55,753 nucleotides of DNA from an uncultured Candidatus Saccharibacteria bacterium (GTDB lineage: Bacteria; Patescibacteriota; Minisyncoccia; Portnoybacterales; UBA2143), in NCBI GenBank assembly GCA_964548405.1, contig CAZJPW010000004.1:1-55753 (forward strand), given 5' to 3'. A program made the translations under genes and the position numbers. Shown one piece after another: positions 9,784 through 53,304 of this stretch (within the stretch, counting starts at the first letter, position 1; each line of letters opens with the position of its first letter). Under the pieces are notes generated by a model. That model had not been told where the DNA came from. It did not search any database and saw only the letters and a program-made list of their open reading frames with translations.

Positions 9784-11607
9784 CTAAACTTTCTTTTTCA
9801 TCAACCTTTCAAATTCTTTGCGTTCAATAACTTCTTTCTTGATTAAAACATCAGCAATTTGGTTAAGTTTTTTCCTTTTTTGAGTAATAATCTTTTTAGC
9901 TGTGTGAAAAGCGGTATCAAGAAATTTAGATACTTCTTTATCAATCTGGCTCGATATTTCTTCAGAATAATCTTTTTCTGTAGTCATTTCCCGGCCTAGA
10001 AAAATCATTTCTTCTTTTCCGCCAAAAGTTCTTGGTCCCAGTTTATCACTCATACCATACTTAGTAACTAGTCTATGAGCTAGGTCAGTTGCCTTTTGTA
10101 AGTCATTGGCGGCCCCAGTAGTTATTTCGCCAAAAATGCTTTTTTCTGCCACATAGCCACCCAAAAACACAGCTAATTCATCAATGAATTCAGAGCGAGA
10201 ATAAAGGTGTTTGTCTTCAATAGGAAGTTTTAAAGTATATCCGACTGCCTGACCTCGAGAAATGATAGAAATTTTTTGGACTGGATCAGTATTGGGCAGT
10301 AAAGCGGCCACTAAAGCATGGCCTGCTTCATGAAAAGCGGTGATTTCTTTTTCTTTTTTGGAGAAAATATGACTTTTTCTTTCCGGTCCTAAGAGAACTT
10401 TTTCAATCGCTTCTCTTAATTCATCTTGACTAATTTCTTTTTTGTTTCTTCGGGCAGTCAGAATAGCTGCTTCATTAACAATATTAGCTAAGTCAGCTCC
10501 AGAAAAACCAGGTGTCCTCTCAGCGATTTCTTTCAAATTAACATTCTTTCCCAATGGCTTATTTAAAGAATGAATTTTGAGGATATCTTTTCGGTCTTTA
10601 AGATCAGGTAAGTCAAAAACAACTCTTCGGTCAAAGCGGCCTGGCCTTAAAAGGGCTGGATCCAATACATCAGGTCGGTTAGTAGCTGCTAAGAGGATAA
10701 TGCCGGAATTAGGATCAAAGCCGTCCATTTCCACTAAGATTTGGTTAAGAGTTTGTTCACGTTCATCGTGTCCGCCTCCCATGCCGGCGCCCCGTTGTCG
10801 TCCAATAGCATCTAATTCATCAATAAAAATCAGAGCGGGTGCATTTTTCTTAGCAGTTTGGAAAAGATCTCTGGTTCGGGCAGAGCCAACTCCAACAAAC
10901 ATTTCTACGAATTCTGAGCCAGAAACGTTGAAAAAAGGAACATTGGCTTCAGTGGCCACAGCTCGGGCAATTAATGTTTTGCCGGTGCCTGGCGGACCAA
11001 CTAAGAGAACGCCTTTGGGAATTTTAGCGCCCAAATTGACGAATTTTCTAGGGCTTTTAAGAAAATCTACGATTTCATACAGTTCTTCTTTGGCTTCTTT
11101 TAAGCCAGCTACATCTTTAAAGGTTATTCGGTTTTTTTTATCTTTAGGGTCAACTAGTCGGGCTCGGGAACGGCCAAAGGTAAAAGCTTGCATTTGTCCT
11201 CTTTGAGCTCCTCTAAGCATAAACCAGAGGAAGAAGCCAATAATGACTAAGGGTAGAAGAAATGGTAGGACAGTGCCAATCCAGAAAGCCAATCCGCTTT
11301 CTCCCTTGATTTCTAAGTTAATTAACTTAAGTTTTTCCGGGTCAACATTAAAATTTTTGAGTGATTCAGTTAAAGACGATTCTTTCTCTTTTATAGCTAT
11401 TTGTTGAGTGCTGTCTTTTAATTCAATTTCTAGTTTATCCCCTTTAATGACTATTTTAGAAACTTGTTCTTGGTTAATCTGGGCAACTAGTTGATTAAGT
11501 GAAATTTCTTCTGGTTTTTCGCCTGTTTCGTTAATTAAAGCAAAAAATCCGGCTATGGTTAAAAAAGCCAGAAAGGCAATCAAAAGATTTTTAAAAAGAT
11601 ATTTCAT
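9784..11607 (-). CDS. ftsH: ATP-dependent zinc metalloprotease FtsH
   Basis: N-terminal TM, Walker [16 protein letters not shown], the SRH region and the zinc motif HEAGHAL. Confidence 0.9.
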
Positions 11608-11615
11608 GTGATAGT

Positions 11616-12794
11616 CTATTCTTTGACTAAAGTTAAAGCCATTTTGTGCGTTTGAGGACTCAGAGAAATAATTTCAAAATTATATGATTCATCTAGTCTG
11701 AGAGCATTCTCTATTTGTAAGTTGTTTTTGGTGAATTCAGCAGCGTGGGCCAAACCATGGATACCTTCTTCTACCTGGATAAAGGCGCCGGTCGGTGTGA
11801 ATTTAATAACCTTACCCTGGATTGTCTGTCCATTCTGATATTTCTCATTAATATTTTGCCAAGGATCTTCCTTTAATGTTTTAAGAGAAAGAGATATTTG
11901 TCCATTTTGAATATCAATAATTTGGGCTTTAATATTTTCGTTTTCTTTGAGAATTTGACTGGGATGATCAATAATTTGCCAGTCTAGTTCGGAAATGTGA
12001 GCTAAGCCTTCTAGGCTATCGTCAATTTTGATGAAGGCGCCGAAATTGGCTAGAGCAGAAACCGTTCCTTTAACTATATCGCCTTTTTTGTAGTTTTCTA
12101 AATTCGCCTGGAGCTTCTTTTCTTGAGCTGCTTTTTCAGAAACAATCAGTTTTTCATCTTTTTTATCCAAACCAATAATTTTTACTTTAATTTCTTGGCC
12201 GATAAACTTGCTAAGCTCTCTGAGTATTTTGTTTTTGTCTCCGTCTTCAACTCGAGGGTAGTTTTCGGGTGACAGTTGAGAAACGGGTAGGAATCCAGTT
12301 GTACCCGAGTAATTAATAACCAAGCCGCCCCGATTAGCATCTATTACTTTAACAGAAATAGTTTCGTTATCTTGTTTTTTAGTTTTAAGGTCAGACCACG
12401 TTTTTTCCAGAGTAGCTTCCTTTATTGATAATTCAATATATCCGTCGTCGTTTTCTGGACTTAAAACTAAGGCAGAAATTTTCTGGCCGACTTTTAGATC
12501 TTTGATTATAGCTTTGTTGTCTTTCCATTCTCCGCCATAGATAATACCGGTACCCAAAGGGCTTAATTCTAAAATGATTGCATTCTTACTAACTTTAATA
12601 ATCTTACCCTCAACTAAATCACCCGCTTGAGGTAGGCGAGGTGTTTTTTCGTCTTTAAACAGCAAGTCTTTCATTGTTTTTAATTCTTTCTTTATCATAC
12701 TTTTCAGAGTATAACCTAAGATTAGTCGCTTGGCAAGAGGTAGAAGATATGATAGAATAATTGTAGGAATAATTAATGGAACTATGGTTCCCAA
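11616..12794 (-). CDS. S1-domain RNA-binding protein (ribosomal protein S1-like, 3-4 S1 repeats)
   Basis: Repeated S1 motifs: GDLVEGKIIKVSKNAIILEL, GDIVKGTVSALANFGAFIKI and GQTIQGKVIKFTPTGAFIQV. The annotated N-terminus may be over-extended; an internal Met at MIKKELKTMKDLL is an alternative start. Confidence 0.7.
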   Translation of the reverse strand: MGTIVPLIIPTIILSYLLPLAKRLILGYTLKSMIKKELKTMKDLLFKDEKTPRLPQAGDLVEGKIIKVSKNAIILELSPLGTGIIYGGEWKDNKAIIKDLKVGQKISALVLSPENDDGYIELSIKEATLEKTWSDLKTKKQDNETISVKVIDANRGGLVINYSGTTGFLPVSQLSPENYPRVEDGDKNKILRELSKFIGQEIKVKIIGLDKKDEKLIVSEKAAQEKKLQANLENYKKGDIVKGTVSALANFGAFIKIDDSLEGLAHISELDWQIIDHPSQILKENENIKAQIIDIQNGQISLSLKTLKEDPWQNINEKYQNGQTIQGKVIKFTPTGAFIQVEEGIHGLAHAAEFTKNNLQIENALRLDESYNFEIISLSPQTHKMALTLVKE

Positions 12795-13447: not shown

Positions 13448-13817
13448 AATGTCTTTAATTGAATTTATCCAAAAACTTCAAGATAAACCTCGTCATGTCC
13501 GCATTCAGATTCTCTGGTTGTCTGTTTTTGTTTCCATGATTATTATTATCTCTCTTTGGGTGATTTCTCTAAAAGATTCTCTGTCAGACAAGGCCGAAGA
13601 AAAAAAATCAGACGAGTTAGTCCAATCGTTAAATAAGGCAAAAGAACAAATACCTTCCTTAATAGATTCTTTTAAGGCAAGTATTGGTTCTTTTTTTGAA
13701 AAAGAGATAGAGATAGAAAGTGAACAGCCTATACAAGTTAAACAGCAAATATTGGAGGAAGATGATAATAAGATTAGTCCAGGCGAATTACCTTTAAGTA
13801 AAAGTATAAATGACTAA
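13431..13817 (+). CDS. hypothetical single-pass membrane protein
   Basis: One TM helix ([21 protein letters not shown]). It is tightly packed between the hydrolase gene and gyrA. No family recognised. Confidence 0.45.
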
Positions 13818-16278
13818 AAAAGTGGCTAAAACAAAACAAGCTAGTCCAGATATTGGATATGTAAAGAAGCGCTCGATTACCGAGGAGATGAAGGAGTCGT
13901 ATTTAGAATATGCTATGAGCGTGATTGTTGCTCGGGCTTTGCCAGATGTACGTGATGGACTTAAACCTGTTCACCGTCGTGTTTTGTATGGTATGCATGG
14001 AATGGGATTGAGTAGTGGGGCTAAATATCGCAAATCAGCTGCGATTGTAGGTAATGTCCTTGGGAGATATCATCCTCACGGTGATTTGGCTGTTTATGAG
14101 TCAATGGTCAGAATGGCTCAAGATTTCTCGTTAAGGTATCCTTTGGTTGATGGGCAAGGAAATTTTGGATCTATGGACGGGGATAATGCTGCGGCCCAAA
14201 GATATACAGAAGCAAGGATGACTAAGTTGTCTGAAGAAATGTTGACTGATATTGAAAAGGAAACAGTTGACTTAATTGATAATTATGACGGTACTAGACA
14301 AGAACCATCAGTCTTGCCGGCTAGGTTTCCTCAATTGCTGGTTAATGGTATTTTTGGCATTGCTGTAGGAATGACCACTAATATCCCGCCCCATAACTTG
14401 GGCGAGATAATTGATGCGACTATTTATTTAATTGATCATCCTAAAGCAACAGTTAAAGATTTATTTCAATTTGTCAAAGGTCCTGATTTTCCAACTGGTG
14501 GAGAGATTTATGATAAAAAGACTATGGTCCAGGCATATAGTACTGGTCGAGGACCAATCGTTAATCGAGCCAAAGCGGAAATCATTGAACGGAAATCAGG
14601 TAAATACCAGATCATTATTTCCCAAATAACCTACGGGACTAATAAGGCTACCTTGATTACCAAGATTGCTGAATTATACAAGGCCAAGAAACTTCAGGGA
14701 ATTAAAGATGTTAGAGATGAATCAGGTAGAGAAGATGAAGTTAGAATTGTCATTGACTTAAAAGGCGATGCTAGTCCTCAAAAGATACTTAATCGTCTAT
14801 ATAAGTTAACTGATTTACAAAAGACTTTCCATATGAATATGTTAGCCTTGGTAGATAGAGGTCTTCAGCCTCAAATGCTGTCTTTGGTTGGAGTACTTGA
14901 AGAATATATTAAACATCGTCAAGAAGTAATTACTCGTAGGACTAAATATTTATTAAATCAAGCTAAAGAAAGAGCCCATATTTTAGAAGGATTAAGTAAA
15001 GCCTTAGATCAGATTGATGCCGTTATTGAGACGATTAAAAAATCTCCAACCCGAGAAGAAGCGCATAAGAATTTAATCAGGAAATTTAAACTGAGCGATC
15101 GCCAGACAACAGCTATTTTGGAAATGCGCTTACAGACTTTAGCCGGTCTAGAACAGAAGAAGATTAAAGATGAACTCAAAGAAAAAAGGAAATTAATCAA
15201 GGAATTAGAAGCTTTGCTTAAGAGTCCGCGCAAGATTTTGACCGTTGTTAAAAAAGATCTCAAGGAATTAAAGGAAAAGTTTGCTGATCTTCGTAAGACT
15301 AAAGTTTTTGCCAGACCAGTTGGACAGCTAAGCGATGAAGATTTGATTCCTCAAGAAAACTGCGTAGTTATTCTTACTCAAGGGGGATATATTAAGAGGG
15401 TTAATCCTCAAGCCTACAAAGCTCAGAAAAGGGGTGGTAAGGGAATTTTGGGGATTACTCCGCGTGAAGAAGATGCAGTTGGTTGGTTTCTTTCTGCTTC
15501 AACTCATGATGATCTTCTTTTCTTTACTGACCAAGGCAGAGTTTTCCAGACTAAGGCCTATGAACTGCCTGAAGCTAGTCGAGTGGCCCGTGGTCAGGCT
15601 ATAGTTAATTTTCTTCAATTAGGTTCTAAAGAACAAGTTACAGCTGTTTTGAAAATGGAAAAGGATGTCCAATCTAAATATTTGGTTATGTCAACTGAAA
15701 ATGGTATAATTAAAAGGACTAAGTTGGGAGATTTTGCCAACGTTCGTAAAAATGGATTAATAGCTATTAATTTAAGAAAGGATGATAAGCTTAAGTGGGC
15801 CAAGTTAACTTCAGGGAAGGAAGAGATTCTTTTGGTTACGATTTATGGCCAGAGTATTCGTTTTAAAGAAAATGATGTTAGGGCGATGAGTCGGGCAGCA
15901 GCTGGAGTAAAAGGAATTAATCTAAAGAGTGATGATAAACTGGTTAGAATGGATGTAATTAACGAAGGGGGAAAAGGTCAAAAAGTACTGGTTGTTACGG
16001 AGAACGGATATGGCAAGAGGACCGATTTAAAAAACTACAAGATACAAAAAAGAGGCGGTTCGGGCGTTAAGACGGCTAAACTAACGGCCAAGACAGGAAA
16101 TATTGTGGCCAGCTATGTACTAAGGGACGAGCAAGAGGATTTAATCGCTATTTCTAAAAAAGGACAAGTCATTAGGACTAAACTTAAGAGTATTGCCACT
16201 TTAGGTAGGGCTACCCAAGGGGTCAGGATTATGAAATTGAATCGCGGGGATAAAGTGGTTTCAATTGCTTGTATTTAG
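13810..16278 (+). CDS. gyrA: DNA gyrase subunit A
   Basis: [24 protein letters not shown] and [10 protein letters not shown] are present. At 822 aa it includes the C-terminal beta-pinwheel repeats. Confidence 0.95.
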
Positions 16279-16816
16279 TATGGAAAAAGTTACTAATGGT
16301 TTAATTCAGCCAGAAGAAGTTTTAAATCAGTTGGATTTGCACGATAATATGCAAGTGGCTGATTTTGGTTGCGGCAACGGATATTTTAGTATTCCCTTGG
16401 CTAAGATAAATACCCTAGGGAAAGTTTATGCTTTAGATGTAATTAAAGAGGCCTTGGAAGCGGTTAAGAGCGGAGCTAATTTAGAAGGTATTGAAAATAT
16501 CGAGACAATCCATTGTAATTTAGAAATACCCGGTGCTTCTAAACTAGAGGATGAGTCAATGGATTTAGTTCTGTTGCGTAACATTTTGTTTCAGTCTCAG
16601 AAAAAGGAGGAGATTATTAGGGAGGCTAGTCGCGTCCTAAAGCCAGAAGGAAAACTGATTTTGCTTGAATGGGTGCTTGGTGCTTCTTTAGCGCCTAAGG
16701 AAGGTTGGATGATTTCTAAAGATGAGGCTGTAAAGCTTGTTGAGGCTGAAAATGTGTCTTTTGACAAAGAATTGGTTTTAGATAATCAACACTATGGATT
16801 AGTGTTTAAAAAATAG
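16265..16816 (+). CDS. class I SAM-dependent methyltransferase (183 aa)
   Basis: Motif [17 protein letters not shown] and motif [12 protein letters not shown]. Confidence 0.7.
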
Positions 16817-18108
16817 TGTCTAAACAAAAAGCGACAATTCTTTATACTTTTATTGCCCCAATGCTTATTTTTGGGTTAGCTGCTTCTTTACCTGGATGCA
16901 AGGAAGATCCTTTTAAAAAGGTAGAGTTGGAATTTTGGGGTGTTTTTGATGATTCTGACATTTACCAGCCATTGATTGATGCTTTTAATGAAGAATACAA
17001 ATACATTACTATTAATTATTATAAGAAGAACTATCAGACTTATGAAAAAGACCTATTAGAAGCTATGGCTACTGGCCGGGGACCTGATATATATATGATT
17101 CATCACACTTGGACATCAAGGTATAAGGATAAGTTTTTGGGGGCTCCTTCAGAACTAATTACTTTAAAAGACTTTCAGGATAATTTCGTTGATGTAGTTT
17201 ATAATGATTTTGTGATAGATGGATATATCGCGGCTATGCCTTTGAGTGTTGATACTTTAGCTCTTTATTATAACAAGGATATTTTTAATACAGCTGGTAT
17301 TCCCCAGCCCCCCAAGACCTGGGAAGAATTTTTAACTGTGTCAGAGAGAACAACTACTAAAGATCAGCGAGGTAATATTATTCAGGCCGGGGCAGCTTTA
17401 GGCACGGCTCGCAATGTTAATCGGTCAACTGATATCTTGTCTCTTTTAATGATTCAATCGGGCGCTCAAATGACTGATCAGAATAATACCAAAGCAACAT
17501 TTAACTTATCTGCTTCTGTAGATGGATCAAGGTTTTATCCGGGTCAAAGGGCCTTAGAATTCTATACTGATTTTGCCAATCCATTAAAATCTTCATATAC
17601 TTGGAATACCAGAATGCATTATTCAATAGATGCTTTTTACGAAGGCAAGGTAGCTATGATGTTTAATTATTCATATAATTTACCAACTATCAGGGCTAAG
17701 TCGCCTTATCTTAATTTTGGGGTAGCTCCTATGCCTCAAATTAAGGATTCAACTAAAGACATTAATTACGCTAATTATTGGGGTTTAACATCTTCTATTA
17801 ATTCCGAAGATTCCAATGAGGTCTGGCAGTTTATTATCTGGCTGACTAATAAGGATAATGCCCAAAAATATTTAGAAGTGGTTGAAAGACCGATTGCCCG
17901 GCGTGATTTAGTTGCTTGGCAGAGAAACGATAAGGATTTGGGCGTTTTTGCCGATCAATCTTTAACAGCCCACTCTTGGTACCAAGTGGATAACTCAGCT
18001 ATTGAACAGCATCTGGCAGATATGATAGAATCAATAGTGTTAAGTCAGGCAACTATTGAAGAGGCGATTAATAAGGCGACTAATCAAATAACTTTATTGA
18101 TGAGATAA
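16816..18108 (+). CDS. extracellular solute-binding lipoprotein (ABC transporter SBP family 1-like)
   Basis: Signal peptide with a lipobox (LAASLPGC). Its size and W/Y-rich composition are typical of sugar-binding SBPs. Confidence 0.55.
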   Translation: MSKQKATILYTFIAPMLIFGLAASLPGCKEDPFKKVELEFWGVFDDSDIYQPLIDAFNEEYKYITINYYKKNYQTYEKDLLEAMATGRGPDIYMIHHTWTSRYKDKFLGAPSELITLKDFQDNFVDVVYNDFVIDGYIAAMPLSVDTLALYYNKDIFNTAGIPQPPKTWEEFLTVSERTTTKDQRGNIIQAGAALGTARNVNRSTDILSLLMIQSGAQMTDQNNTKATFNLSASVDGSRFYPGQRALEFYTDFANPLKSSYTWNTRMHYSIDAFYEGKVAMMFNYSYNLPTIRAKSPYLNFGVAPMPQIKDSTKDINYANYWGLTSSINSEDSNEVWQFIIWLTNKDNAQKYLEVVERPIARRDLVAWQRNDKDLGVFADQSLTAHSWYQVDNSAIEQHLADMIESIVLSQATIEEAINKATNQITLLMR

Positions 18109-18536
18109 TGAAGATTGTAATTGTTTTAGTTTTGTTAGTTAATATATTCTTTGTTGGCGCAGCCTCTGCCGCTTTTATTACAGATCCGCTAGTACCTTGC
18201 GGCGGGGATAGTCAGCCAGAGTGTAATCTCTGTCATCTTTGGCGCTTGGGTAGTAATATCATTAACTTTATCAGTTTTAATTTAGCTATTCCCATAGCTG
18301 CCCTGTTGTTTGTGGTGGCTGGCGTTCTTTTCTTAACGTCTGGCGGTGATGAAAGCAGGGTGACCAAAGCCAGAAATATATTTACCAACACAGTTATCGG
18401 CCTAGTTATTATTTTTGCCAGCTGGCTTTTAGTTGATACTTTGATCAAAACGATAGCTAATCCAGATACCACTCCAGGATCAAGACTTATTTATTCATGG
18501 AATCATTTTCCGATTTGTTCAGATGTGGGTCCTTGA
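18108..18536 (+). CDS. TrbC/VirB2-like pilin paralogue 1
   Basis: Sec signal peptide (VGAASAAF), then helix 1 (ending VLFLTSGG), a short charged loop (DESRVTKARN) and helix 2 (IFTNTVIGLVIIFASWLL). This is the two-helix hairpin typical of T4SS pilins. Confidence 0.45.
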   Translation: MKIVIVLVLLVNIFFVGAASAAFITDPLVPCGGDSQPECNLCHLWRLGSNIINFISFNLAIPIAALLFVVAGVLFLTSGGDESRVTKARNIFTNTVIGLVIIFASWLLVDTLIKTIANPDTTPGSRLIYSWNHFPICSDVGP

Positions 18537-18547
18537 TACAAGAATTT

Positions 18548-18901
18548 ATGTTTAAAAATATTTTAATTTTTTCTATATTACTTTTGATATTGTTTATGAT
18601 TGGTTTCCCTGTGATAAATGTAAACGCGTTTACACCAGCGCCGCATATAGAGAATCCACTCCAAGCAACGAGTTTTAACGATTTAATATCGTCAATTATT
18701 AATTGGGTCGTGACCATCGGTGTGTTAATAGCTGTATTAATGATAATTTATTCAGGATTCTTATTTATGACAGCCGGAGGTGTTGAAGATAGAGTTACCA
18801 AAGCAAGGAAAACTTTAATCTGGTCTTTGGTTGGTCTGGCAATATTAATAATGGGTAGTAATTTTATCAACTTGATTCAAAATATTCTTGGAAGTAATTA
18901 A
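18548..18901 (+). CDS. TrbC/VirB2-like pilin paralogue 2
   Basis: Signal peptide MFKNILIFSILLLILFMIGFPVINVNAF, then ...FLFMTAGGVEDRVTKARKTLIWSLVGLAILIMG. I have re-called the start at an internal Met, because the track ORF starting at 18497 overlaps paralogue 1. Confidence 0.45.
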   Translation: MFKNILIFSILLLILFMIGFPVINVNAFTPAPHIENPLQATSFNDLISSIINWVVTIGVLIAVLMIIYSGFLFMTAGGVEDRVTKARKTLIWSLVGLAILIMGSNFINLIQNILGSN

Positions 18902-18937
18902 ATTAAATTAAATTATTAAGGAAGGGGGTGAAATTTA

Positions 18938-19282
18938 GTGAAAAATAAAAAGGTTGCTGTTTTAGTTACATCTTTTATGTTTTTGTTTATTTTGGCGCCT
19001 ATGGTTTATTCTGCGTATGCGCCACCAACAGGAACAGGTCCAACTAGTTTAACTGCTATGGAAAACATAGTAAAAAAGATTGTTGGATGGGTTTCGAATA
19101 TTGTTTTGTTGATAGGTGTTATGATGATTGCTTGGGCTGGTTTCACTTGGATGACAGCTGGAGGTGATACGGATAAGTTGGGCGAAGCGAGACAAAGATT
19201 AATTTGGGGTCTAGTTGGTATTGCCGTAGCTCTATTTGCCGGTATGGCTGATGACTTTATTATGACTTTATTAGGATCATAA
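18938..19282 (+). CDS. TrbC/VirB2-like pilin paralogue 3 (GTG start)
   Basis: RBS aaggaagggggtg sits upstream. Signal peptide, then ...FTWMTAGGDTDKLGEARQRLIWGLVGIAVALFAG. It shares the TAGG-[DE]x[RK]-x-K/E-AR-x-LIW-LVG motif with paralogues 1 and 2. Confidence 0.45.
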   Translation: MKNKKVAVLVTSFMFLFILAPMVYSAYAPPTGTGPTSLTAMENIVKKIVGWVSNIVLLIGVMMIAWAGFTWMTAGGDTDKLGEARQRLIWGLVGIAVALFAGMADDFIMTLLGS

Positions 19283-19314
19283 CTAGTTAGTATATATTTT
19301 GATTGAAATAAAAA

Positions 19315-19358
19315 AGCCGGGACGTACGCTTTTATTAAGCGTGTCCGGCTTTTTGTTT
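19315..19358. terminator. bidirectional hairpin terminator
   Basis: Stem agccgggacg...cgtgtccggct with ttttg following. It sits between convergent genes. Confidence 0.55.
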
Positions 19359-19380
19359 TGTTTTTTTAGCTTACGTTACA

Positions 19381-20403
19381 TTAGCGGGGCGAGATGATTG
19401 TTACTTGAACTAGTAACGATTCATCATTGTTCCCGTTGGCCATAAGCCTAGTGATACCGTCCGTAGCTGCAGGGCCCGTCTGGTAGTTCTTTCTTCTAAT
19501 TTCAAAGGGATTCCCATGAGTAGGGATAACGGAGTAAATTCCCTTTCCCTGAATCCTGTGAATCTGGGCTCGGTCACCCTTTTTATAAGGATTCTGGTTC
19601 CCGTCCGTGTCCAGATTTACAATCTTTCCTGGAGGGAGAAGATACATGACTGAAGGTTTTAAGATATCTTTTTTAGGTTCAATGATCAAAGATATTTTAG
19701 AAAACGATTCCTCCCAGTTGATTTTTTGATCCTCTGGAACGGCGAATATCTTTTCAACTTCTATTTTTATTTTTCTTATTTCCTCCAAATTTTCGTCTGT
19801 TGGGTTTCTTATCTTATCAAGTTCAGCCAGTCGTTCCATGTATTTTTTAACCTTACCCTTTTTATTCCCTTCCTCGGCTTTTGCCAAAGCATGTTGTACC
19901 TTGGAAGTAAATACTTGATAAAGCGCTGCCCTATCAAGGTTGGTCGTGAATTCCCCGGCAAAGATTCGGAGACCGATCGAAATCATAGAGGCGAACAATA
20001 TCATCACGAACGTGGTTGCTAATAAAAATCGCGATACTCTTTTTGTAAAGGGCACATCCTTATTAACAATGGTATTCAACATAAATACCGAGATTTCGAC
20101 GGTAGCTAACCAATGCCAATGTGTTGTCCACATCTCGTGGAATACATTTGGCATAATTAGCGCTAGGACCAAGTGAAGAGTTCCCCATGCAATGGGTGTT
20201 GCCGCGACGGGTTTAAAATACTCCCACCAGAATTTCTTTGGTCCTATGGCGTACATGCCGCCGATAATAATGCCTGCGAATAAGGCGGCGGCGATTAGCA
20301 TTAAGGTTGCTTGGAAAAGCCCTATCCCCAACATCGACGAGATTACACATACGATTACGAATATAATCGTCAATGCTGTAAGTGTAGTCCGGTATGTGTT
20401 CAT
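19381..20403 (-). CDS. polytopic membrane protein, possible NfeD-like partner of the upstream SPFH protein
   Basis: About 5 N-terminal TM helices, a coiled-coil middle section, and a beta-rich C-terminal domain. Its start overlaps the SPFH stop by 4 nt (ATGA). GC content is elevated. Confidence 0.5.
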   Translation of the reverse strand: MNTYRTTLTALTIIFVIVCVISSMLGIGLFQATLMLIAAALFAGIIIGGMYAIGPKKFWWEYFKPVAATPIAWGTLHLVLALIMPNVFHEMWTTHWHWLATVEISVFMLNTIVNKDVPFTKRVSRFLLATTFVMILFASMISIGLRIFAGEFTTNLDRAALYQVFTSKVQHALAKAEEGNKKGKVKKYMERLAELDKIRNPTDENLEEIRKIKIEVEKIFAVPEDQKINWEESFSKISLIIEPKKDILKPSVMYLLPPGKIVNLDTDGNQNPYKKGDRAQIHRIQGKGIYSVIPTHGNPFEIRRKNYQTGPAATDGITRLMANGNNDESLLVQVTIISPR

Positions 20404-21629
20404 TTTTTCTCCTCCCTATTTTTGATTTCAGCCGATTTCTGTTCTGCTGCTCCGATAACACTTCTGGCCACGTTGGCAACAGCTTCGGAAATAAGGACCC
20501 ATTTAATGTCCTTTTTTTCGATTTTGGTTTCGTCAATTACTTTTTTCATGGCTGCTGCTTCGTGTTGTGATGCCTCTTCACGTAGTTTCGACACCACGAC
20601 CTGACTTGAAGCAGCTTCGATTACCTTGGGTGGGCGAATGTTATGTATGGTAATTTCACCCTGGATCCCGAAATGCTTCATTTCTTCATTGAAGCCTTTA
20701 GTGATCTTTTCGGCCAGTTTGTTGAGTTGACTTTCGTTCATTTCGGTTAGTCCGATGTCACCAGGGTTATTTGAATCTTTAGGTTTGCTGCAAAAATATC
20801 CGGCAGTAGTCCTGTTTAGTACCGTTTGAATCCATTGATCTTCAAGCTCTGCCCTATCTTTCACTCTCAGGGCATACTTTATGGCGGCATTCTCGACTTC
20901 TTCATGGCCGCCGATTTTATTCTGGGCGACCCATGTTTTCGTTCGATAGTCCACTAGAGGTAAGATATTGTCTTTAGTGTTGACTTCTACTAGATCCGGA
21001 TCTCTTTGTAGGGGAACCAGACTAACGAGTCTTACTTCGTCATGCCATACTTTTGGGATGAAGATTCTTAAACCTTCTTTTTTGGCCTGATAGCCCCGGT
21101 AGGGTTTTTTTTCTGGATCGGATCCCCAGACATTGCGGAGTACCCAAATATGATTTTCAGGTACATCGGCAAGAATTGCCTTAACCTCGTCCATCAGGCT
21201 CTCGGGGTTTTTTTCCGTTTTTTCCTTATTCTTCTCGCCTTCTTTTTTCTTATTAGTTGCCATGACGCTCGCGCCCCCGGCAACAATAGCGAAAAGAAGA
21301 ACAAGAATCAGCCCAATCAACAGCTTGGTTAAAAGTGAGACTTCAATAGTTCGGGTGAGCAGATAAAATGCTCCGCCGAGCAACAGTACGGCTACGGTGA
21401 ATATTATACTCAATACCCCTCTCTTAACGAAATCAGGCATCTTGACTCTCTTTTTTTTGAAGATTAATGCCGCAGTCACTGCGATTACGACTACCCCAAT
21501 TCCAATAAGAATTATGGGATTGAATTCGGGCAATCCAAATTTCTGGATTGCTACCGAAATCAAGATTACGATCAAAATTACCGCCGAGGTTAAACCGATG
21601 GCTTTGAATAGAGTAGATAATTTTTTCAT
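20400..21629 (-). CDS. SPFH/band-7 (stomatin/HflK-like) membrane protein
   Basis: N-terminal TM helices followed by GLRIFIPKVWHDEVRLVSLVPLQRDPDLVEVNTKDNILPLVDYRT and ...GIQGEITIHNIRPPKVIEAA, which match the SPFH consensus (GL..IPFID.V...DL....D.....TKDN....D; I.DI.PP..V..A). Confidence 0.6.
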   Translation of the reverse strand: MKKLSTLFKAIGLTSAVILIVILISVAIQKFGLPEFNPIILIGIGVVVIAVTAALIFKKKRVKMPDFVKRGVLSIIFTVAVLLLGGAFYLLTRTIEVSLLTKLLIGLILVLLFAIVAGGASVMATNKKKEGEKNKEKTEKNPESLMDEVKAILADVPENHIWVLRNVWGSDPEKKPYRGYQAKKEGLRIFIPKVWHDEVRLVSLVPLQRDPDLVEVNTKDNILPLVDYRTKTWVAQNKIGGHEEVENAAIKYALRVKDRAELEDQWIQTVLNRTTAGYFCSKPKDSNNPGDIGLTEMNESQLNKLAEKITKGFNEEMKHFGIQGEITIHNIRPPKVIEAASSQVVVSKLREEASQHEAAAMKKVIDETKIEKKDIKWVLISEAVANVARSVIGAAEQKSAEIKNREEKK

Positions 21630-43935: not shown

Positions 43936-44997
43936 ATGTTTTTATTTAAGAAAAAGCCAAAGAATTGTCTAGGTATTGATATTAGCGCCTCGGCTGTAAA
44001 AATGGTTGAGTTAGGAAAAGAGGATGGCAGACATAAATTGAATAATTACGCAATTTTTTCCCTAGATAAATATTTAAAGAGTAAGGATCAACAGTCTGAT
44101 CTAGAAAATTTTCAGATTTCTAATGAGAAAATAGCCAAGATAATCAAGCAAACTATTAAAGAAGCTAAGATTGAATCCAGGGATGTCTATTTTTCAGTCC
44201 CAGTCTATTCTAGTTTTTATACTCTGATTGATTTTCCAGATATGTCCAAAAAGGAGATTAAAGCAGCTATTCCTTTTGAGGCGAGAAAATATGTGCCCAT
44301 TCCAATTTCAGAAGTTATCCTGGACTGGAGCGTGGTTAATCCGCCTAATAATAAGGATAGCAAGCAAGTTTTGCTTATTGCTGTACCTAAGAAAGTTATC
44401 GATAACTATAATCAGATAGTCGAATTGGCTGGTTTAAATCTTAGAGGAATTGAAGGAGAGACTTTTAGTTTGACCCGCGCTTTGATAGGTAATGATGAAA
44501 GTGTTATTATCCTAATAGATAGTGGCGCTCGTTCCATTAATGTTAGTATTATTGATGATGGCTACATTAGAGTGACTCATAATTTGGAAATGGGCGGTCG
44601 TAAGATAACTAAGGCTATTGCTCAACAGATGAATATGGATTTGGAAAAGGCGGAATATTTCAAAAGGAGGTTGTCTGGCGAGGAATCAACTGATCAAATA
44701 AGCCCTCAATTAAAGGGGGTTGTCCAATCATCTTTGGGAATGATCCTTATTGAGATTAAGAAGATTATCGATAATTATCAAAATAAGTATAATCGTAAGA
44801 TTGAAAAAAGCGTTTTGGTCGGCAGCGGCGTTCATTTGTCAGGATTTTCCGACAGTCTGGTTAATAAATTATCTTTAGATGTCTCTATAGGTGATCCTTT
44901 TGCCCGAATAACCTATCCTGATGTGCTTAAACCGGTCTTAAAGGATTTAGGCCCTCCTTTGGCTGTAGCTATAGGGTTAGCCATGAGGGAAGAATAA
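43936..44997 (+). CDS. pilM: type IV pilus assembly ATPase-fold protein PilM
   Basis: LGIDISASAVKMVEL is an actin-like N-terminus, and the size is typical. Confidence 0.75.
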   Translation: MFLFKKKPKNCLGIDISASAVKMVELGKEDGRHKLNNYAIFSLDKYLKSKDQQSDLENFQISNEKIAKIIKQTIKEAKIESRDVYFSVPVYSSFYTLIDFPDMSKKEIKAAIPFEARKYVPIPISEVILDWSVVNPPNNKDSKQVLLIAVPKKVIDNYNQIVELAGLNLRGIEGETFSLTRALIGNDESVIILIDSGARSINVSIIDDGYIRVTHNLEMGGRKITKAIAQQMNMDLEKAEYFKRRLSGEESTDQISPQLKGVVQSSLGMILIEIKKIIDNYQNKYNRKIEKSVLVGSGVHLSGFSDSLVNKLSLDVSIGDPFARITYPDVLKPVLKDLGPPLAVAIGLAMREE

Positions 44998-45004
44998 AAA
45001 TATT

Positions 45005-45595
45005 ATGGACATCAAATTGATGCCAGAAAAATATAAGAGAAAAGGGATTGGTGGCGGATTGAGCCTATTCAGGAGCGGTCCCTTGAGAATTATTGTCCAG
45101 CTGGCCTCTAAGGCTAATCTTTGGTTTGTTTTGTCGTTTGTTTTATTAATTGGTCTGGTTTTGGTTTGTTTTGGTTTATGGGGGTACAAGATTAATTTAG
45201 ATAAGAATAAGGAAAGCTTAGTCCAGAAAATGGAAGAGCTACAAGCTCAGAGGGATTTAAATTTGGAAAATGATTTTATGGAATTGAAAGAAACGATTGA
45301 AAATTTCAGAAAGATACTGGATAAAAGAATCTATTCTTCAAATATTTTGGAAACACTAGAGGAATTGACTATTCCTGATGTCCAATACAGCAATTTTAAA
45401 GTTAATTTTGGCCGTTTATTACTTGATTTAAAAGCAGAGGCAGCTGACTATAATTCTTTGGCCAAGCAAGTAATAATTTTCAAAAATGATTCCCGGATAA
45501 ACAAAGTTAATTTGTTTGAGGTTAGTTTGGAAAAAAGCGGCTGGGTTGGGACTAACTTGAATCTTGAATTAAATCCAAGTTTTTTGTATGAATAA
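45005..45595 (+). CDS. PilN-like bitopic pilus assembly protein
   Basis: Single TM followed by a coiled coil. Its position immediately after pilM supports the call. Confidence 0.5.
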   Translation: MDIKLMPEKYKRKGIGGGLSLFRSGPLRIIVQLASKANLWFVLSFVLLIGLVLVCFGLWGYKINLDKNKESLVQKMEELQAQRDLNLENDFMELKETIENFRKILDKRIYSSNILETLEELTIPDVQYSNFKVNFGRLLLDLKAEAADYNSLAKQVIIFKNDSRINKVNLFEVSLEKSGWVGTNLNLELNPSFLYE

Positions 45596-46184
45596 AAAAG
45601 TTATTATCATTTTAGTTAATTTGTTGGTCAGTATAGCTTTAGTGTTTGTTTTTGCTGATCCTCTTTGGAATTCAGTTAAAAGTCTGAGGGTTGATATAGA
45701 CAAACGAGGTCAGGAAGTTAAAAAGGTTGAACAGTTTTTAGCTAAGGTACAGGAATTAGAAAAGGAATATCAGGAGATGGGAGGGGAAGGTGTTAAAGAT
45801 ATTGTTTCGGTTTTACCTAAGGAAAAAGATTTACCCTACTTAATGAATCAATTTGAGGTTTTGGCTGCAAGTAACGGCCTATTATTAGAGTCATTAAAAT
45901 TTAACGAAGAAATTGAACGAGAGGGAAAAGACAGCAAGCTTTCTCAAAAGAAATTAAACCAGACTGAAGAGATTATTCCGCTCTTCCCTTATTTATCCGT
46001 TGAAATAAGGTTAAACGGATCTTATCAGGGCCTTAAGAGCTATTTGGAAGATTTAGAAAACAGTGTTCGTTTAATGGATGTTAAAGAGATTGGCTTTAGA
46101 AGTGAACGGGATAAGGGAGGTATTAATTTGTCCGGCCTGTCTATTTTTAAGTTTACTTTAGGAATATTAGTATATTATCAATAA
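45588..46184 (+). CDS. PilO-like bitopic pilus assembly protein
   Basis: N-terminal TM followed by a coiled coil, in the pilM-N-O gene order. Confidence 0.45.
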   Translation: MNKKVIIILVNLLVSIALVFVFADPLWNSVKSLRVDIDKRGQEVKKVEQFLAKVQELEKEYQEMGGEGVKDIVSVLPKEKDLPYLMNQFEVLAASNGLLLESLKFNEEIEREGKDSKLSQKKLNQTEEIIPLFPYLSVEIRLNGSYQGLKSYLEDLENSVRLMDVKEIGFRSERDKGGINLSGLSIFKFTLGILVYYQ

Positions 46185-46507
46185 TGAATTTCAAATCAAT
46201 TTTTTCTAAAGGTTCTTTATCCCAAGATCAGAAACAGCAAATACTGATAAGTGTTTTTATTGTGGTTATTTTTGCCACTCTTATGGTTCTGTATTTTGGC
46301 TTTTGGCGTTCTTCGCCGGCTCCGTCCGATCCGGACTCTCAGACTCCAGGAGTGACTAAGGGCCAAAGTATTAATCTTGAAAAGATTGATTTTGATGTTA
46401 GTTTCTTAAAGACTTCTCGTTTTCAGGATTTAAATATTTATGGGAAGTGGCCCTTAGAAATAGAAGAAAAAGGTCGGCAAAACCCATTTTTGCCATATAA
46501 TCAATGA
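46184..46507 (+). CDS. small membrane protein (PilP-position)
   Basis: One TM helix. Translationally coupled between the pilO-like gene and pilB. Confidence 0.4.
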   Translation: MNFKSIFSKGSLSQDQKQQILISVFIVVIFATLMVLYFGFWRSSPAPSDPDSQTPGVTKGQSINLEKIDFDVSFLKTSRFQDLNIYGKWPLEIEEKGRQNPFLPYNQ

Positions 46508-48138
46508 GTGGTTTAAATAAAAAAGACAACCTAAAAGATAAAAAAGCAGCCAAAGATGATAATCAGACGTTAAAAGTTCCTTTTATAGATTTAGCTCATA
46601 AAGAGATTCCAGTTGAAGTGTTAAAAGAGGTTCCTGAAGAGGCGGCAGCTTTTTATAATTTTGTTCCCATAGCCAGAAAAGGTAATATCCTTGAAGTGGG
46701 CATGGTCGATACAGATAATCTTAAAGCCAAAGAAGCTTTAAGATTTATTACTCGGAGAAGTGGCCTGGAGTCAAAAATATTTGCCATTAGTTCAGTTGAT
46801 TTTGAAAACGTTTTAAGGCAGTATCAGAGTCTTCGGGGCGAAGTTAATAAAGCACTTAAGGAGTTGGAAGAAGAAATAGAGGCAGGAGAAGGCGCTGAAT
46901 CATTCAAAGGGAAGCCCAAGGAGATGGCTGAAAAAATTGTTGCCGAAGCGCCAATCACTAGAATTGTTGCAGTTATCTTAAGACATGCGACCGAGGGCAA
47001 AGCTTCTGACGTACATATTGAGGCAGCCGAAAATAAAGTTAAAGTTCGTTTTAGGGTTGATGGAGTCCTTTATACTAGTTTAGTCCTGCCTAGAGATATT
47101 CATTCAGCTGTTGTTTCCCGGATTAAGATACTTTCTGATTTAAAGATTGATGAGACAAGAATACCTCAAGATGGTCGATTCCATACTGTGATTGCTGGGA
47201 AAAAGATTGATTTTCGTGTTTCTACGTTACCGACAGCTGGAGGAGAAAAAGTTGTTTTAAGAGTTTTGGACCTATCAGCCGGCCTAAGGGATTTCATTAG
47301 TTTAGGTTTAGAGGGATATAATTTAGAAATTTTAAAGAAAGAAATTAAGCAGCCCTTTGGTATGATTTTACTTACTGGTCCGACTGGTTCTGGTAAGTCA
47401 ACCACCCTTTATGCTATCCTTGATAGCTTGAATCGGGAAGGAATTAATATTATTAGCTTAGAAGACCCGGTTGAATATTTTGTCGAAGGAATTAGCCAGT
47501 CACAGATTATGCCTGAAATAGGATATACTTTTGCTTCAGGTCTGCGTCATATTTTAAGACAAGATCCTGATGTAATTATGGTAGGAGAGATTAGGGATCA
47601 GGAAACGGCTGAGTTAGCCATCCATGCCGCCTTGACTGGGCATATTCTTCTTTCTACTTTACATACTAATGACGCTATAGGAGTGATTCCGCGCCTGATT
47701 GATATGAAAATTGGATCATTTCTTTTACCTTCTTCGTTAAATTTAATGATTGCTCAGCGTTTAGTTAGGCGGCTTTGTGAGAAATGTAAAAAGGAAATTC
47801 CTGCTCCGTCTAAAGTTGTTGAAATAATTGAAAGTGAGTTGACTGAGTTGAGTCCGGTGCATAAAGAATCCTTTTCTTGGAAAAAACCTTTCAAAATTTA
47901 TCGGCCGGTTGGATGTAAGTTTTGTGGCAATAAGGGGACAAAAGGTCGAATTGCCCTTTATGAAATATTGCAAATGACTCCTCAATTAGAGGAAATCATT
48001 GCCGGAGAGTTAAGTGAAGTGAGAATAAAGGAAGAGGCCCACAGACAGGGTATGATTACGATGAAGCAAGATGGAATTACCAAGTCACTTCAAGGAATTA
48101 TTTCTTTTGAGGAAATGATTAGGATGGTTGAGGAATAG
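46504..48138 (+). CDS. pilB: type IV pilus assembly ATPase PilB (GspE family)
   Basis: Walker A LLTGPTGSGKSTTLYA, the Asp box and His box, and a tetra-Cys motif CEKCKK...CKFCGN. Confidence 0.85.
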   Translation: MSGLNKKDNLKDKKAAKDDNQTLKVPFIDLAHKEIPVEVLKEVPEEAAAFYNFVPIARKGNILEVGMVDTDNLKAKEALRFITRRSGLESKIFAISSVDFENVLRQYQSLRGEVNKALKELEEEIEAGEGAESFKGKPKEMAEKIVAEAPITRIVAVILRHATEGKASDVHIEAAENKVKVRFRVDGVLYTSLVLPRDIHSAVVSRIKILSDLKIDETRIPQDGRFHTVIAGKKIDFRVSTLPTAGGEKVVLRVLDLSAGLRDFISLGLEGYNLEILKKEIKQPFGMILLTGPTGSGKSTTLYAILDSLNREGINIISLEDPVEYFVEGISQSQIMPEIGYTFASGLRHILRQDPDVIMVGEIRDQETAELAIHAALTGHILLSTLHTNDAIGVIPRLIDMKIGSFLLPSSLNLMIAQRLVRRLCEKCKKEIPAPSKVVEIIESELTELSPVHKESFSWKKPFKIYRPVGCKFCGNKGTKGRIALYEILQMTPQLEEIIAGELSEVRIKEEAHRQGMITMKQDGITKSLQGIISFEEMIRMVEE

Positions 48139-48159
48139 GATAATAAATATATATAAATT

Positions 48160-48594
48160 ATGAAAATTACAAAGCAGGGATTTACATTAATTGAGCTTTT
48201 AGTGGTAGTAGCTATAATAGGTCTTTTAGCTACCATTATCTTATACAGTGTTAGTACAATTAAAGCCAAGAGCCGTGATGCTCGTCGGGTCACGGATGTT
48301 AAAGTTATTCAGCAGGGATTATCAATGTATTACAATGATAATTTTCTTTATCCTGATTCTGGCGGGAGCGCTATTGAAATTAATGGAAGTAGCGATGATA
48401 TGTCGCAAGCATTGATTAATAATGGATCAATGAATGGTCTGCCAGTTGATCCATTAAATGGAGATATGGGTGGAGTGACGTATAAATACTATTATCAATC
48501 ACTCGATAGTCAGGATGATTACGAACTAACTTTCTATTTAGAGACAAATACAGTTCAAAATAGGTCGCAAGGAATTAATGTAGTTAAACCATAA
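48160..48594 (+). CDS. type IV pilin (prepilin, class III signal)
   Basis: MKITKQG|FTLIELLVVVAIIGLLATI, with Glu5 in the mature protein. Confidence 0.85.
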   Translation: MKITKQGFTLIELLVVVAIIGLLATIILYSVSTIKAKSRDARRVTDVKVIQQGLSMYYNDNFLYPDSGGSAIEINGSSDDMSQALINNGSMNGLPVDPLNGDMGGVTYKYYYQSLDSQDDYELTFYLETNTVQNRSQGINVVKP

Positions 48595-48606
48595 TACATA
48601 AAAATT

Positions 48607-48978
48607 ATGAAAAAAATACTAATTATTGAAGATGATCCATTTCTTAGTGAAATGTATGCCGCTAAGTTTACTGAGAGCGGTTTTGAAACGGAGGTGGCAT
48701 CTGACGGTAAGGAGGGTTTAGCTAAAATAGAGAATTTTCAGTCTGATTTGGTCCTTTTGGATATTGTTTTACCCAAAATGGACGGTTTTGAAATATTAAA
48801 GAAGATTAAAGAGAAGGAAGAATTAAAAGAAGTTCCGATTGTCTTGTTGACTAATTTGGGTCAAAAGAACGAAGTTGAAAAGGGATTATCTTTAGGTGCT
48901 GACGAATACATTATTAAGGCCCACTTTACGCCTACAGCAGTGGTGGCCAAAGTAAAGGAAATATTAAGTAAAAAATAA
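48607..48978 (+). CDS. stand-alone CheY-like response-regulator receiver (PilH-like)
   Basis: IIEDDPF...LVLLDIVLPKMDGFEIL...PIVLLTNLG... Confidence 0.8.
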   Translation: MKKILIIEDDPFLSEMYAAKFTESGFETEVASDGKEGLAKIENFQSDLVLLDIVLPKMDGFEILKKIKEKEELKEVPIVLLTNLGQKNEVEKGLSLGADEYIIKAHFTPTAVVAKVKEILSKK

Positions 48979-48981
48979 TAT

Positions 48982-50049
48982 ATGAGTGAATATCAAAAAA
49001 AACTTGATGATATTTTGAATCATGCGATCAAAGATGGAGCCAGTGATGTCCATCTTTCAGCTGGTCGGACGCCTACTTTTCGGGTTCACGGCTCTTTGAT
49101 TGCTTATGATAAATATCCTGTTATGACCGAGAAAGATACTCAAGAATTGGCTTCTGTTATCCTTCCAGAAGACCGCCGGGAGCAATTCTATAGTCAAAGA
49201 GATATTGATTTATCATATGCTCATCAAGATAAGAGTAGATTTAGGGTTAATGTTTATCATCAGCTTGGTCAGATCAGTATTGCTATGCGTTTGATTCCGA
49301 ATAAGATTAGGAATATTGATGAATTAAATTTGCCGGCAGCCTGTCATAATTTTACCAAGGCGCCTCAAGGATTCTTTTTAGTAGTTGGTCCTTCTGGTCA
49401 AGGTAAATCAGCTGCTCTGGTTGCTCTAGTTGATGAAATAAATCACATTCGCCAGGATCATGTGATTACAATTGAGGATCCAGTAGAATATTTATTTAAG
49501 GAAGATAAGTGTATTATTGATCAGCGTGAGGTGGGCGAAGATGTTCAAAATTTTCATCGGGGTTTAAGGGAAGCTTTGCGTCAGGATCCGGATGTGATTA
49601 TGATTGGTGAGATGCGTGATCCTGAAACCATCAGTAGCGCGGTAACGGCGGCTGAAACAGGTCATTTGGTCCTGGCTACTTTACATACTAATACAGCTGC
49701 TCAGACAATTGACCGGATTATAGATAGTTTTCCTCCTCATCAACAGAATCAAATCAGGATACAGTTAGCATCTACTGTTTTAGGCATTCTTTCCCGTCGT
49801 TTAATTCCTTGTCTAAAGGGCGAGGTGATTAATGCAGTTGAATTAATGATTGCCAATTCAGCTATTAGGAACTTAATTAGGGAGGGCAAGACTCACCAAA
49901 TCGATATGATTATTGAAACCGGGTCTGAAGAAGGAATGATTTCTTTAAATCGTTCTTTGGCTGATTTAACTAATAGCGGGATGATTACCAGAGAACATGC
50001 AGAAGCGCATTCGCTCAATGTTAATGAATTAAGGCTGTTGCTGAAATAA
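48982..50049 (+). CDS. pilT: twitching-motility retraction ATPase PilT
   Basis: Walker A VVGPSGQGKSAAL and the PilT-type motifs, at 355 aa. Confidence 0.8.
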   Translation: MSEYQKKLDDILNHAIKDGASDVHLSAGRTPTFRVHGSLIAYDKYPVMTEKDTQELASVILPEDRREQFYSQRDIDLSYAHQDKSRFRVNVYHQLGQISIAMRLIPNKIRNIDELNLPAACHNFTKAPQGFFLVVGPSGQGKSAALVALVDEINHIRQDHVITIEDPVEYLFKEDKCIIDQREVGEDVQNFHRGLREALRQDPDVIMIGEMRDPETISSAVTAAETGHLVLATLHTNTAAQTIDRIIDSFPPHQQNQIRIQLASTVLGILSRRLIPCLKGEVINAVELMIANSAIRNLIREGKTHQIDMIIETGSEEGMISLNRSLADLTNSGMITREHAEAHSLNVNELRLLLK

Positions 50050-50061
50050 TAAATATAAATT

Positions 50062-51267: not shown

Positions 51268-51339
51268 AAATTAGACAATTTGTGGTACAATAAAGGGTCG
51301 AAAAAAAATAAGTTAAAATATAGCTATTAAGGAAAGGGG

Positions 51340-51801: not shown

Positions 51802-51810
51802 TTAGTTTTT

Positions 51811-51880
51811 AAACAGTCTGATAGCCGAAGACCTCATGAGAGTTGTCTCGTGGGGTTAGGGTTGTCAGACTGTTTGTTTT
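51811..51880 (+). terminator. long structured hairpin/terminator after the second pilin
   Basis: An 11-bp outer stem aaacagtctga / tcagactgttt encloses an internally structured loop of about 43 nt, followed by gttttt. Confidence 0.5.
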
Positions 51881-51932
51881 TGTAACTTAAACTACGAAAA
51901 CTAAATTTTTTAAAATCGCTTATCCCTACCCT

Positions 51933-51960
51933 CCCCGCTACGCGGGTCGGGCGCGCGCCC
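51933..51960. other. GC-rich palindromic island in the AT-rich intergenic region
   Basis: cccgc-tac-gcggg is immediately followed by the perfect 12-nt palindrome gggcgcgcgccc. Confidence 0.5.
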
Positions 51961-52006
51961 ACACCTACGATTTAAAAAATTTGTTTTCTTCGTTTAATAG
52001 TAAAAT

Positions 52007-53300: not shown

Positions 53301-53304
53301 GTTT

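Follow-up and report, generated by a model that had tools for sequence, protein, structure and literature searches.

The window analyzed here is a complete contig of 55,753 bp (CAZJPW010000004.1; GC content of ~32 to 43%) from a genome of the Patescibacteria, or candidate phyla radiation (CPR). On its plus strand lie three consecutive small genes, referred to below as pilins 1, 2, and 3, whose sequences support their identification as VirB2-like pilins of the Pfam T4SS_pilin family, in the form typical of the Patescibacteria. VirB2-like pilins are associated with type IV secretion systems (T4SS), and the three genes are preceded by a gene for a carbohydrate-type solute-binding protein (SBP) and followed by an intrinsic terminator (Table 1).

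The spacing of these genes is tight. The ATG of pilin 1 shares one base with the TAA stop codon of the SBP gene (TAATG), and the spacers between the pilin genes measure 11 nt (pilins 1 and 2) and 36 nt (pilins 2 and 3). The open reading frame (ORF) of pilin 2 begins at position 18497, but the start codon is most likely the ATG at 18548, giving a protein that opens MFKNIL, because the orthologues begin with MFK and this ATG lies 11 nt past the TGA of pilin 1. The GTG start of pilin 3 is preceded, six bases ahead, by the Shine-Dalgarno-like sequence GGAAGGGGGTGA (positions 18920 to 18931). RNA folding of positions 19305 to 19368 gave a free energy of -24.5 kcal/mol (z = -5.2 versus shuffled sequences), and the hairpin formed here terminates the pilin operon and, probably, the convergent minus-strand genes too. 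Because of the tight spacing, the Shine-Dalgarno-like sequence, and the strong terminator, the three pilin genes are taken to form the downstream part of a single operon, of which the preceding lipoprotein gene is at least one further member; pilin 1 is predicted to be translationally coupled to that gene. The SBP begins with a segment (...LAASLPGC) that resembles a lipobox and has weak, far subthreshold NCBIfam similarity to MalE, GanS, and UgpB. It is an orphan: a Pfam scan found no ABC permease or ATPase partner for it anywhere in the window.

Table 1. Features of the pilin locus and of other parts of the window discussed in the text (positions are those of the 55,753-bp window)
Feature	Position	Strand	Description
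Pilin 1	18108-18536	+	142 aa; signal peptide, Cys-bearing N-terminal segment (C31, C39, C42), two-helix hairpin, C-terminal tail WNHFPIC(137); PF18895 41.2 bits (E = 1.7e-10), PF04956 20.2 bits
Pilin 2	18548-18901	+	117 aa; PF18895 41.4 bits (E = 1.5e-10), PF04956 23.4 bits; orthologues start MFK...
Pilin 3	18938-19282	+	114 aa, GTG start; PF18895 36.3 bits (E = 6.1e-9), PF04956 35.0 bits
SBP_bac_1 carbohydrate-type solute-binding lipoprotein	16816-18108	+	Pfam SBP_bac_1 (2e-34), SBP_bac_8 (1.2e-30)
Intrinsic terminator hairpin with A-tract and T-tract flanks	19310-19367	.	terminator-like site at 19324-19344; hairpin at ~19316-19349
Class I SAM methyltransferase	16265-16816	+	Pfam; context gene, no claim of acting with the pilins
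gyrA	13810-16278	+	Pfam; 822 aa; context gene, no claim of acting with the pilins
Multipass membrane protein	19381-20403	-	340 aa, hydrophobic N-terminal half; no Pfam or NCBIfam match
Convergent pair	19381-21629	-	the 340-aa protein and a 409-aa SPFH/Band-7 membrane protein; 4-nt overlap
Complete type IV pilus cluster	43936-52759	+	PilM, unassigned PilN-position gene, PilO, PilB-like ATPase (MshEN domain), N_methyl pilin, response regulator, PilT-like ATPase, PilC, second N_methyl/ComP-like pilin, PilD
PF00437 ATPases	46504-48138, 48982-50049		within the type IV pilus cluster
Type IV pilus pilins	48160-48594, 51340-51801		small, secreted
HxsD-like genes, then radical-SAM/SPASM enzyme	53284-55329		

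Hydropathy profiles of the three proteins contain an N-terminal signal-like hydrophobic segment and two further hydrophobic segments. Sites resembling those of signal peptidase I at the -3/-1 positions were found after residue 21 in pilin 1 (ASA↓A), residue 27 in pilin 2 (VNA↓F), and residue 25 in pilin 3 (VYS↓A); an alternative site in pilin 3 (AYA↓P, after residue 28) was read by eye and is absent from the list produced by the scan. The mature domains are 28 to 38% identical in pairwise comparisons and share a loop of the form GG-x3-[KR]-[VL]-x-[KE]-A-R, present as GGDESRVTKAR, GGVEDRVTKAR, and GGDTDKLGEAR. AlphaFold2 models of pilins 1 and 3, built from family alignments, begin with a signal helix, after which comes a long hairpin of two helices, with helices at residues 2 to 18, 41 to 77, and 82 to 117 in pilin 1 (predicted local distance difference test score [pLDDT], 74) and at residues 4 to 27, 38 to 73, and 78 to 111 in pilin 3 (pLDDT, 80).

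Pilin 1 contains four cysteines, at residues 31, 39, 42, and 137, and pilins 2 and 3 contain none. In 55 homologues of pilin 1, P30, C31, C39, C42, W45, W131, P135, and the C-terminal cysteine are all invariant, and the gap between the first two cysteines varies from ~4 to ~20 residues. This pattern would be given by a disulfide-closed loop together with a second disulfide joining the N- and C-terminal segments; in the model, the cysteine-bearing segments are of low confidence (pLDDT, 53 to 68). A preliminary description of the window, made from its sequence, had proposed three tandem small genes encoding helical hairpins, the first with cysteine pairs, and these features hold up, as do the motifs that it gave for the end of helix 1 and the loop. 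The helix 2 motif that it assigned to all three proteins (LIWxLVG[IL]A) occurs only in pilins 2 and 3, the corresponding segment of pilin 1 being IFTNTVIGLV.

All three proteins score above the gathering threshold of PF18895 (T4SS_pilin; 26.6 bits), whereas only pilin 3 exceeds that of PF04956 (TrbC/VirB2; 27.9 bits). Profile-profile comparison relates the families of pilins 1 and 3 with 96% probability. The alignment of the pilin 3 profile to Agrobacterium tumefaciens VirB2 by hhalign is weak (E = 3e-4; probability of 39%), with a matching helix-loop-helix register; the VirB2 sequence used was checked against PDB entry 8cue. Pilins 2 and 3 scored 30.5 and 25.1 bits against NCBIfam NF045849, a pilin-like family of Mycoplasma integrative and conjugative elements (ICEs), for which the cutoff is 40. 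None of the three proteins matched the N_methyl motif (PF07963), even at E values of up to 10. The profile matches and the hairpin models support the TrbC/VirB2-like assignment made in the preliminary description, and neither of the results that it named as refuting was encountered on the points covered. Homologues number in the hundreds; all carry a precomputed PF18895 assignment, and they are named "TrbC/VirB2 family protein," "pilin," or "type IV secretory pathway VirB2 component" at NCBI and JGI. The nearest named ones belong to "Candidatus Portnoybacteria" and to unclassified Patescibacteria.

The wider family is very large, the profile of the pilin 3 group retrieving 50,701 cluster representatives (50% identity) at an E value of ≤1e-3 and 5,788 at ≤1e-10. 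In many representatives, a single polypeptide has multiple pilin-like stretches (17 in 1,775 aa, 11 in 1,147 aa, and 7 in 606 aa, for example). Such proteins could be genuine hairpin polyproteins or tandem arrays merged by gene callers or by an alternative genetic code. In two loci of distant Patescibacteria, L043 (9959-14941) and L046 (2609-5584 and 5595-12989), the PF18895 hairpin is N-terminal in proteins of 991, 1,660, and at least 2,465 aa with Big_5 Ig-like domains. It is also found in proteins of 310 to 444 aa in L045 (2584-3516 and 4929-5891) and L047 (1519-2853), at the N-terminal end in one and toward the C-terminal end in two. Because the hairpin forms part of large proteins in these organisms, its role there may be that of an anchor or of an adhesin module integrated into a pilus.

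The arrangement of the locus is conserved well beyond the window. In relatives whose pilin is 46 to 63% identical to pilin 3, the gene order is FtsH-S1-MBL-x-GyrA-methyltransferase-SBP-pilin x3, followed by the convergent membrane-protein/SPFH pair. Scanning one genome per GTDB species with the pilin 1 alignment yielded 34 loci, whose neighboring genes were identified by tblastn with the proteins of the window. The SBP gene lies immediately upstream of the pilin gene or genes in 22 of the 34, including three loci (L037, L038, and L045) in which the SBP is just 33 to 40% identical. In three Azambacteria-like loci, the SBP-methyltransferase-GyrA-MBL block is divergent from a single gene of the pilin 1 type, with the SBP still within ~5 kb of the pilin, and a truncated locus (L044) retains only GyrA-MBL. 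The SBP is missing within 10 kb in 6/34 loci, and in two more the contig begins at the pilin, leaving the arrangement undecidable. Three loci from other lineages have a lone gene of the pilin 1 type between dnaE and ligA.

Where the loci are collinear, the gene in position 1 best matches pilin 1 and that in position 2 best matches pilin 2, in ~20 loci each. At position 3, pilin 3 is the best match in most of these loci, about five being ambiguous. Because these positional best matches hold across ~20 species, the three paralogues are old and have been kept together as a set. Identities to the window proteins across collinear loci L014 to L036 are 53 to 71% for pilin 1, mostly ~30 to 63% for pilins 2 and 3, 54 to 81% for the SBP, and 67 to 87% for GyrA. 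The size of the array is not completely fixed, since L029 (10329-12029) carries five pilin genes past the SBP; two adjacent copies (11256-11600 and 11685-12029) score identically, which suggests a recent tandem duplication. L045 has an array of ~7 pilin genes.

The explanation that we favor, and regard as moderately probable, is that the three proteins are distinct subunit types assembled by a T4SS whose genes lie in another part of the genome; a surface filament as the product is what family membership and published work suggest. The pilin genes would be cotranscribed with the upstream lipoprotein gene, pilin 1 being translationally coupled to it, and transcription would end at the hairpin. 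After export through Sec and cleavage by signal peptidase I, each precursor would yield a mature protein of ~86 to 121 aa that would form a two-helix hairpin in the cytoplasmic membrane, with both ends facing outward and the basic loop in the cytoplasm. A chromosomal T4SS of the monoderm type (VirB4, VirB3/PrgI, VirB6, and TrsD) would then extract these hairpins and polymerize them into a pilus or short conduit for epibiotic contact with a host cell, on the model of the F and T pili (TraA and VirB2), for which such extraction and polymerization are established. The filament would have the conserved arginine of the loop (A84-R85 in pilin 3) as a lipid-binding lining of its lumen and would leave the termini exposed. 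Each pilin would be a fixed type of subunit for which the others cannot substitute; one might be the major subunit, for example, and the other two minor ones. In pilin 1, the two terminal tails would run next to each other on the outside of the filament, and two disulfides, probably formed by the four invariant cysteines, would staple them to one another. Head-to-tail cyclization has been reported for VirB2 and TrbC, and the staple would be its functional analogue. The analysis establishes the structure of the genes, their family membership, the hairpin architecture, the conservation, and the synteny; export, processing, topology, assembly by a T4SS, the disulfides, and the subunit roles are inferred.

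This explanation draws on earlier work in the phylum. A survey of 3,035 Patescibacteria genomes was made with the same two Pfam models, PF18895 and PF04956 (Quinonero-Coronel et al. 2025, PMC12102498). The survey reports 1,948 assemblies with both VirB4 and VirB2-like pilins, the pilin genes being close to virB4 in just 1,135 of them, together with 441 arrays of 2 to 11 pilin genes in 383 assemblies (mean identity, 25%; maximum, 54%), for which a role in antigenic or host-range versatility is proposed. Arrays are described there as most abundant in Microgenomatia and Saccharimonadia, and Table S1 gives VirB4 in 5 of 9 listed draft metagenome-assembled genomes of Portnoybacteria. In Southlakia epibionticum ML1, a six-gene VirB2-like array and the T4SS are essential, according to the summary of Wang et al. 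2023 in a 2025 review (PMC12857230), which describes the Patescibacteria as the one monoderm exception possibly elaborating conjugative pili. The T4SS of Patescibacteria and its VirB2-like pilins are characterized, in a 2024 perspective among others, as essential yet completely unknown in their role (PMC11665869, PMC12857230), a picture that the present locus leaves unchanged.

A number of results weigh against assembly by a T4SS. The preliminary description had noted that no other T4SS component is present in the window, and a Pfam scan covering essentially all ORFs of ≥100 aa agrees, finding no member of the VirB4/CagE, VirD4/TraG, TrbL/VirB6, or VirB3 families. A 92-kb scaffold of the same region contains no T4SS genes in the 10 kb past the right end of the window; the genes there are radical-SAM and HxsD genes, an asparagine synthase gene, Sua5, and ATP-grasp genes. 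A crude screen of eight pilin loci for a large ORF with a Walker A motif, as expected for a VirB4-like protein, found none. In the 34 species-representative loci, the relatives of window neighbors detected by tblastn within 10 kb of the pilin are housekeeping genes only. Linkage to VirB4 and the translocon (VirB3, VirB6, and VirB8) was not seen, none being present in the window, in the next 10 kb, or near the orthologous trios examined, and the pilin locus is a vertically inherited housekeeping neighborhood rather than a T4SS island. Housekeeping proteins identified in the window by Pfam include MurD/MurC-type ligases, FtsH, S1, GyrA, LeuRS, TsaD, YchF, and RecG. A search of PDB sequences with the profile of the pilin 3 family returned nothing at E values of up to 10, and fold searches did not distinguish the hairpin from generic helical hairpins. 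To our knowledge, no VirB2-like protein of the Patescibacteria has been shown to form a filament.

Alternative readings have to be considered in the light of these results. That the pilin ORFs are chance frames or misannotations might be suspected from their short, hydrophobic, and AT-rich character, but the significant hidden Markov model matches, the hundreds of homologues, and the gene order kept across species exclude this, leaving it a negligible probability; the PF18895 E values and the recurrence of the same trio, in order, in more than 20 other species are what identify the ORFs as genes. The copies might instead be interchangeable variants of one filament subunit that serve antigenic or host-range variation, an idea already put forward for VirB2 paralogues in Bartonella and Anaplasma. 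The divergence of the mature domains, the faster evolution of pilins 2 and 3 relative to that of the SBP and GyrA, and the larger arrays of some relatives (including the apparently identical pair in L029) agree with such variation, and the idea is offered in the published survey (PMC12102498). The preliminary description had likewise suggested antigenic diversification. However, the positional matches described above mean that the three types predate speciation, and all have been retained with invariant features of their own, such as the four cysteines of pilin 1; no repeats, inverted repeats, or recombination signals were seen, although no search for them was made. Since the genes lie in one operon, all three pilins are probably coexpressed, which also argues against alternation among them. 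Since at least 20 species share the trio in orthologous positions, fixed subunit roles are favored over antigenic variation, which we consider very unlikely; old paralogues kept in place across species fit a fixed functional specialization.

A more serious alternative, although in our judgment still a rather unlikely one, is that the hairpins have no T4SS and remain in the membrane or on the surface, where they work with the cotranslated orphan SBP, the VirB2-like fold having been reused as a membrane-anchoring element. They could, for example, oligomerize into an anchor or scaffold that displays the SBP for the binding of host glycans or form part of a non-ABC uptake route. Consistent with this are the directly upstream position of the SBP in most loci, maintained even where the SBP itself has diverged greatly, and its proximity in the Azambacteria-like loci; the overlap of its stop codon with the start of pilin 1; the absence of an ABC partner for it in the window; and the absence of any T4SS gene seen nearby in the loci examined. 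The lone genes of the pilin 1 type between dnaE and ligA and the anchor-like fusion of the PF18895 hairpin to giant Big_5 surface proteins point the same way. The family is, however, homologous to VirB2/TrbC, and such genes co-occur with VirB4 in most surveyed Patescibacteria and adjoin it in more than half (PMC12102498), and the array of S. epibionticum is essential together with the T4SS (PMC12857230). Moreover, adjacency of the SBP gene is not evidence of physical interaction, gyrA and the methyltransferase gene being equally conserved neighbors that are clearly unrelated in function. It is also conceivable, but unlikely, that the orphan carbohydrate-binding lipoprotein and the three fixed hairpin proteins make up a unit of their own, detached from T4SS loci and inherited vertically beside gyrA across much of the Paceibacteria-like Patescibacteria, with two disulfides holding the N-terminal tail of pilin 1 to its C-terminal tail in place of the cyclization of VirB2. 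Such a unit may take either of two forms: a pilus or conduit decorated or served by the SBP that captures host-derived sugars, or a T4SS-independent membrane or surface assembly of the repurposed pilin fold.

Whichever of these applies, the locus is a clean and conserved case: its three pilin types keep a set order, and the gene linked to them codes for a solute-binding lipoprotein instead of a secretion ATPase. If the linkage to the SBP is functional, nutrient capture would be indicated as the task of these filaments, with the SBP and the cysteine-stapled pilin 1 as testable partners. If it is not, the trio is one more instance of an abundant family (~50,700 representatives at 50% identity).

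Other genes of the window were considered as possible T4SS components and set aside. The two PF00437 ATPases were rejected as VirB11 candidates, since they are surrounded by a complete PilM/O/B/T/C/D cluster with N_methyl pilins. The 340-aa multipass membrane protein encoded downstream of the pilins was rejected as a VirB6-like candidate, as it lacks family matches, is convergent with the pilin genes, and is translationally coupled to the SPFH/Band-7 protein; the two may represent an SPFH/NfeD-like pair. This pair is kept beside the pilin trio in several relatives, and no link to the pilins was seen. Near the right end of the window, and at L048:9443-19067, HxsD-like genes precede a radical-SAM/SPASM enzyme gene, followed past the window by three more radical-SAM genes and the asparagine synthase gene; this looks like a peptide-modification cluster of the His-Xaa-Ser type. 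The gyrA gene contains an intein in several relatives (L003:3284-7327 and L007:351-4115), where proteins of 1,254 to 1,347 aa carry an Intein_splicing domain with or without LAGLIDADG; the GyrA of the window has none.

Among known systems, the type IV pilus (T4P) encoded in the same window resembles the trio in that its pilins belong to a small, secreted, filament-forming class. T4P pilins are essential for the epibiotic lifestyle in Saccharibacteria, and the T4P machine differs from the T4SS, both having been reported as essential in that group. T4P pilins have a class III leader, an N_methyl motif that is cut by PilD, and a single N-terminal helix, and the genuine T4P pilins of the window carry this motif; in contrast, the trio have Sec-type leaders and no N_methyl motif, and the two machineries are unrelated. 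The ICE protein Mbov_0395/MMCAP2_0565 of Mycoplasma (NF045849), associated with a monoderm conjugation system of the MPF-FATA type, is likewise small and two-helical, and pilins 2 and 3 align with 59 to 74 of the 80 positions of its profile. Their scores nevertheless place the trio outside NF045849, and the context here is not an ICE.

The resemblance to VirB2, TrbC, and TraA, as represented by the T pilus of A. tumefaciens (PDB 8cue and 8exh) and the F pilus, extends to small size, an N-terminal leader (cleaved in those proteins and predicted here), two hydrophobic helices, and a short basic loop. Unlike these proteins of diderm bacteria, the trio belong to a monoderm organism, have marginal sequence similarity to them, contain a longer loop (GG-x3-KR-x3-AR), and have no adjoining virB operon; the disulfide-capable tails of pilin 1 are absent from VirB2 and TraA.

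The closest counterparts are the VirB2 arrays of Patescibacteria, including that of S. epibionticum ML1 and the "Sec-secreted array" of TM7x, which share with the trio the same Pfam families, the phylum, and tandem small genes with Sec signals (PMC12102498). Tandem VirB2-like sets are already known in the Patescibacteria, and their separation from virB4 is common there. The array of ML1 lies inside a T4SS locus, whereas the trio lies in a gyrA/housekeeping neighborhood with no T4SS gene in the contig; the published arrays are reported to peak in Microgenomatia and Saccharimonadia, whereas the nearest named relatives of the trio are Portnoybacteria (Paceibacteria). No mention of SBP coupling or of a four-cysteine pilin 1 subfamily was found in the available parts of the published array accounts. 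The conserved gyrA-methyltransferase-SBP-pilin x3 operon and the four-cysteine pilin 1 subfamily are thus what is modestly new here. In other respects, the trio falls within the published definition of an array (2 to 11 VirB2-like genes of low identity, in tandem or separated by one nonpilin gene; PMC12102498) and shares with the arrays reported there low identity between copies (28 to 38% here, against a mean of 25%), a chromosomal location, and a position that is frequently away from virB4.

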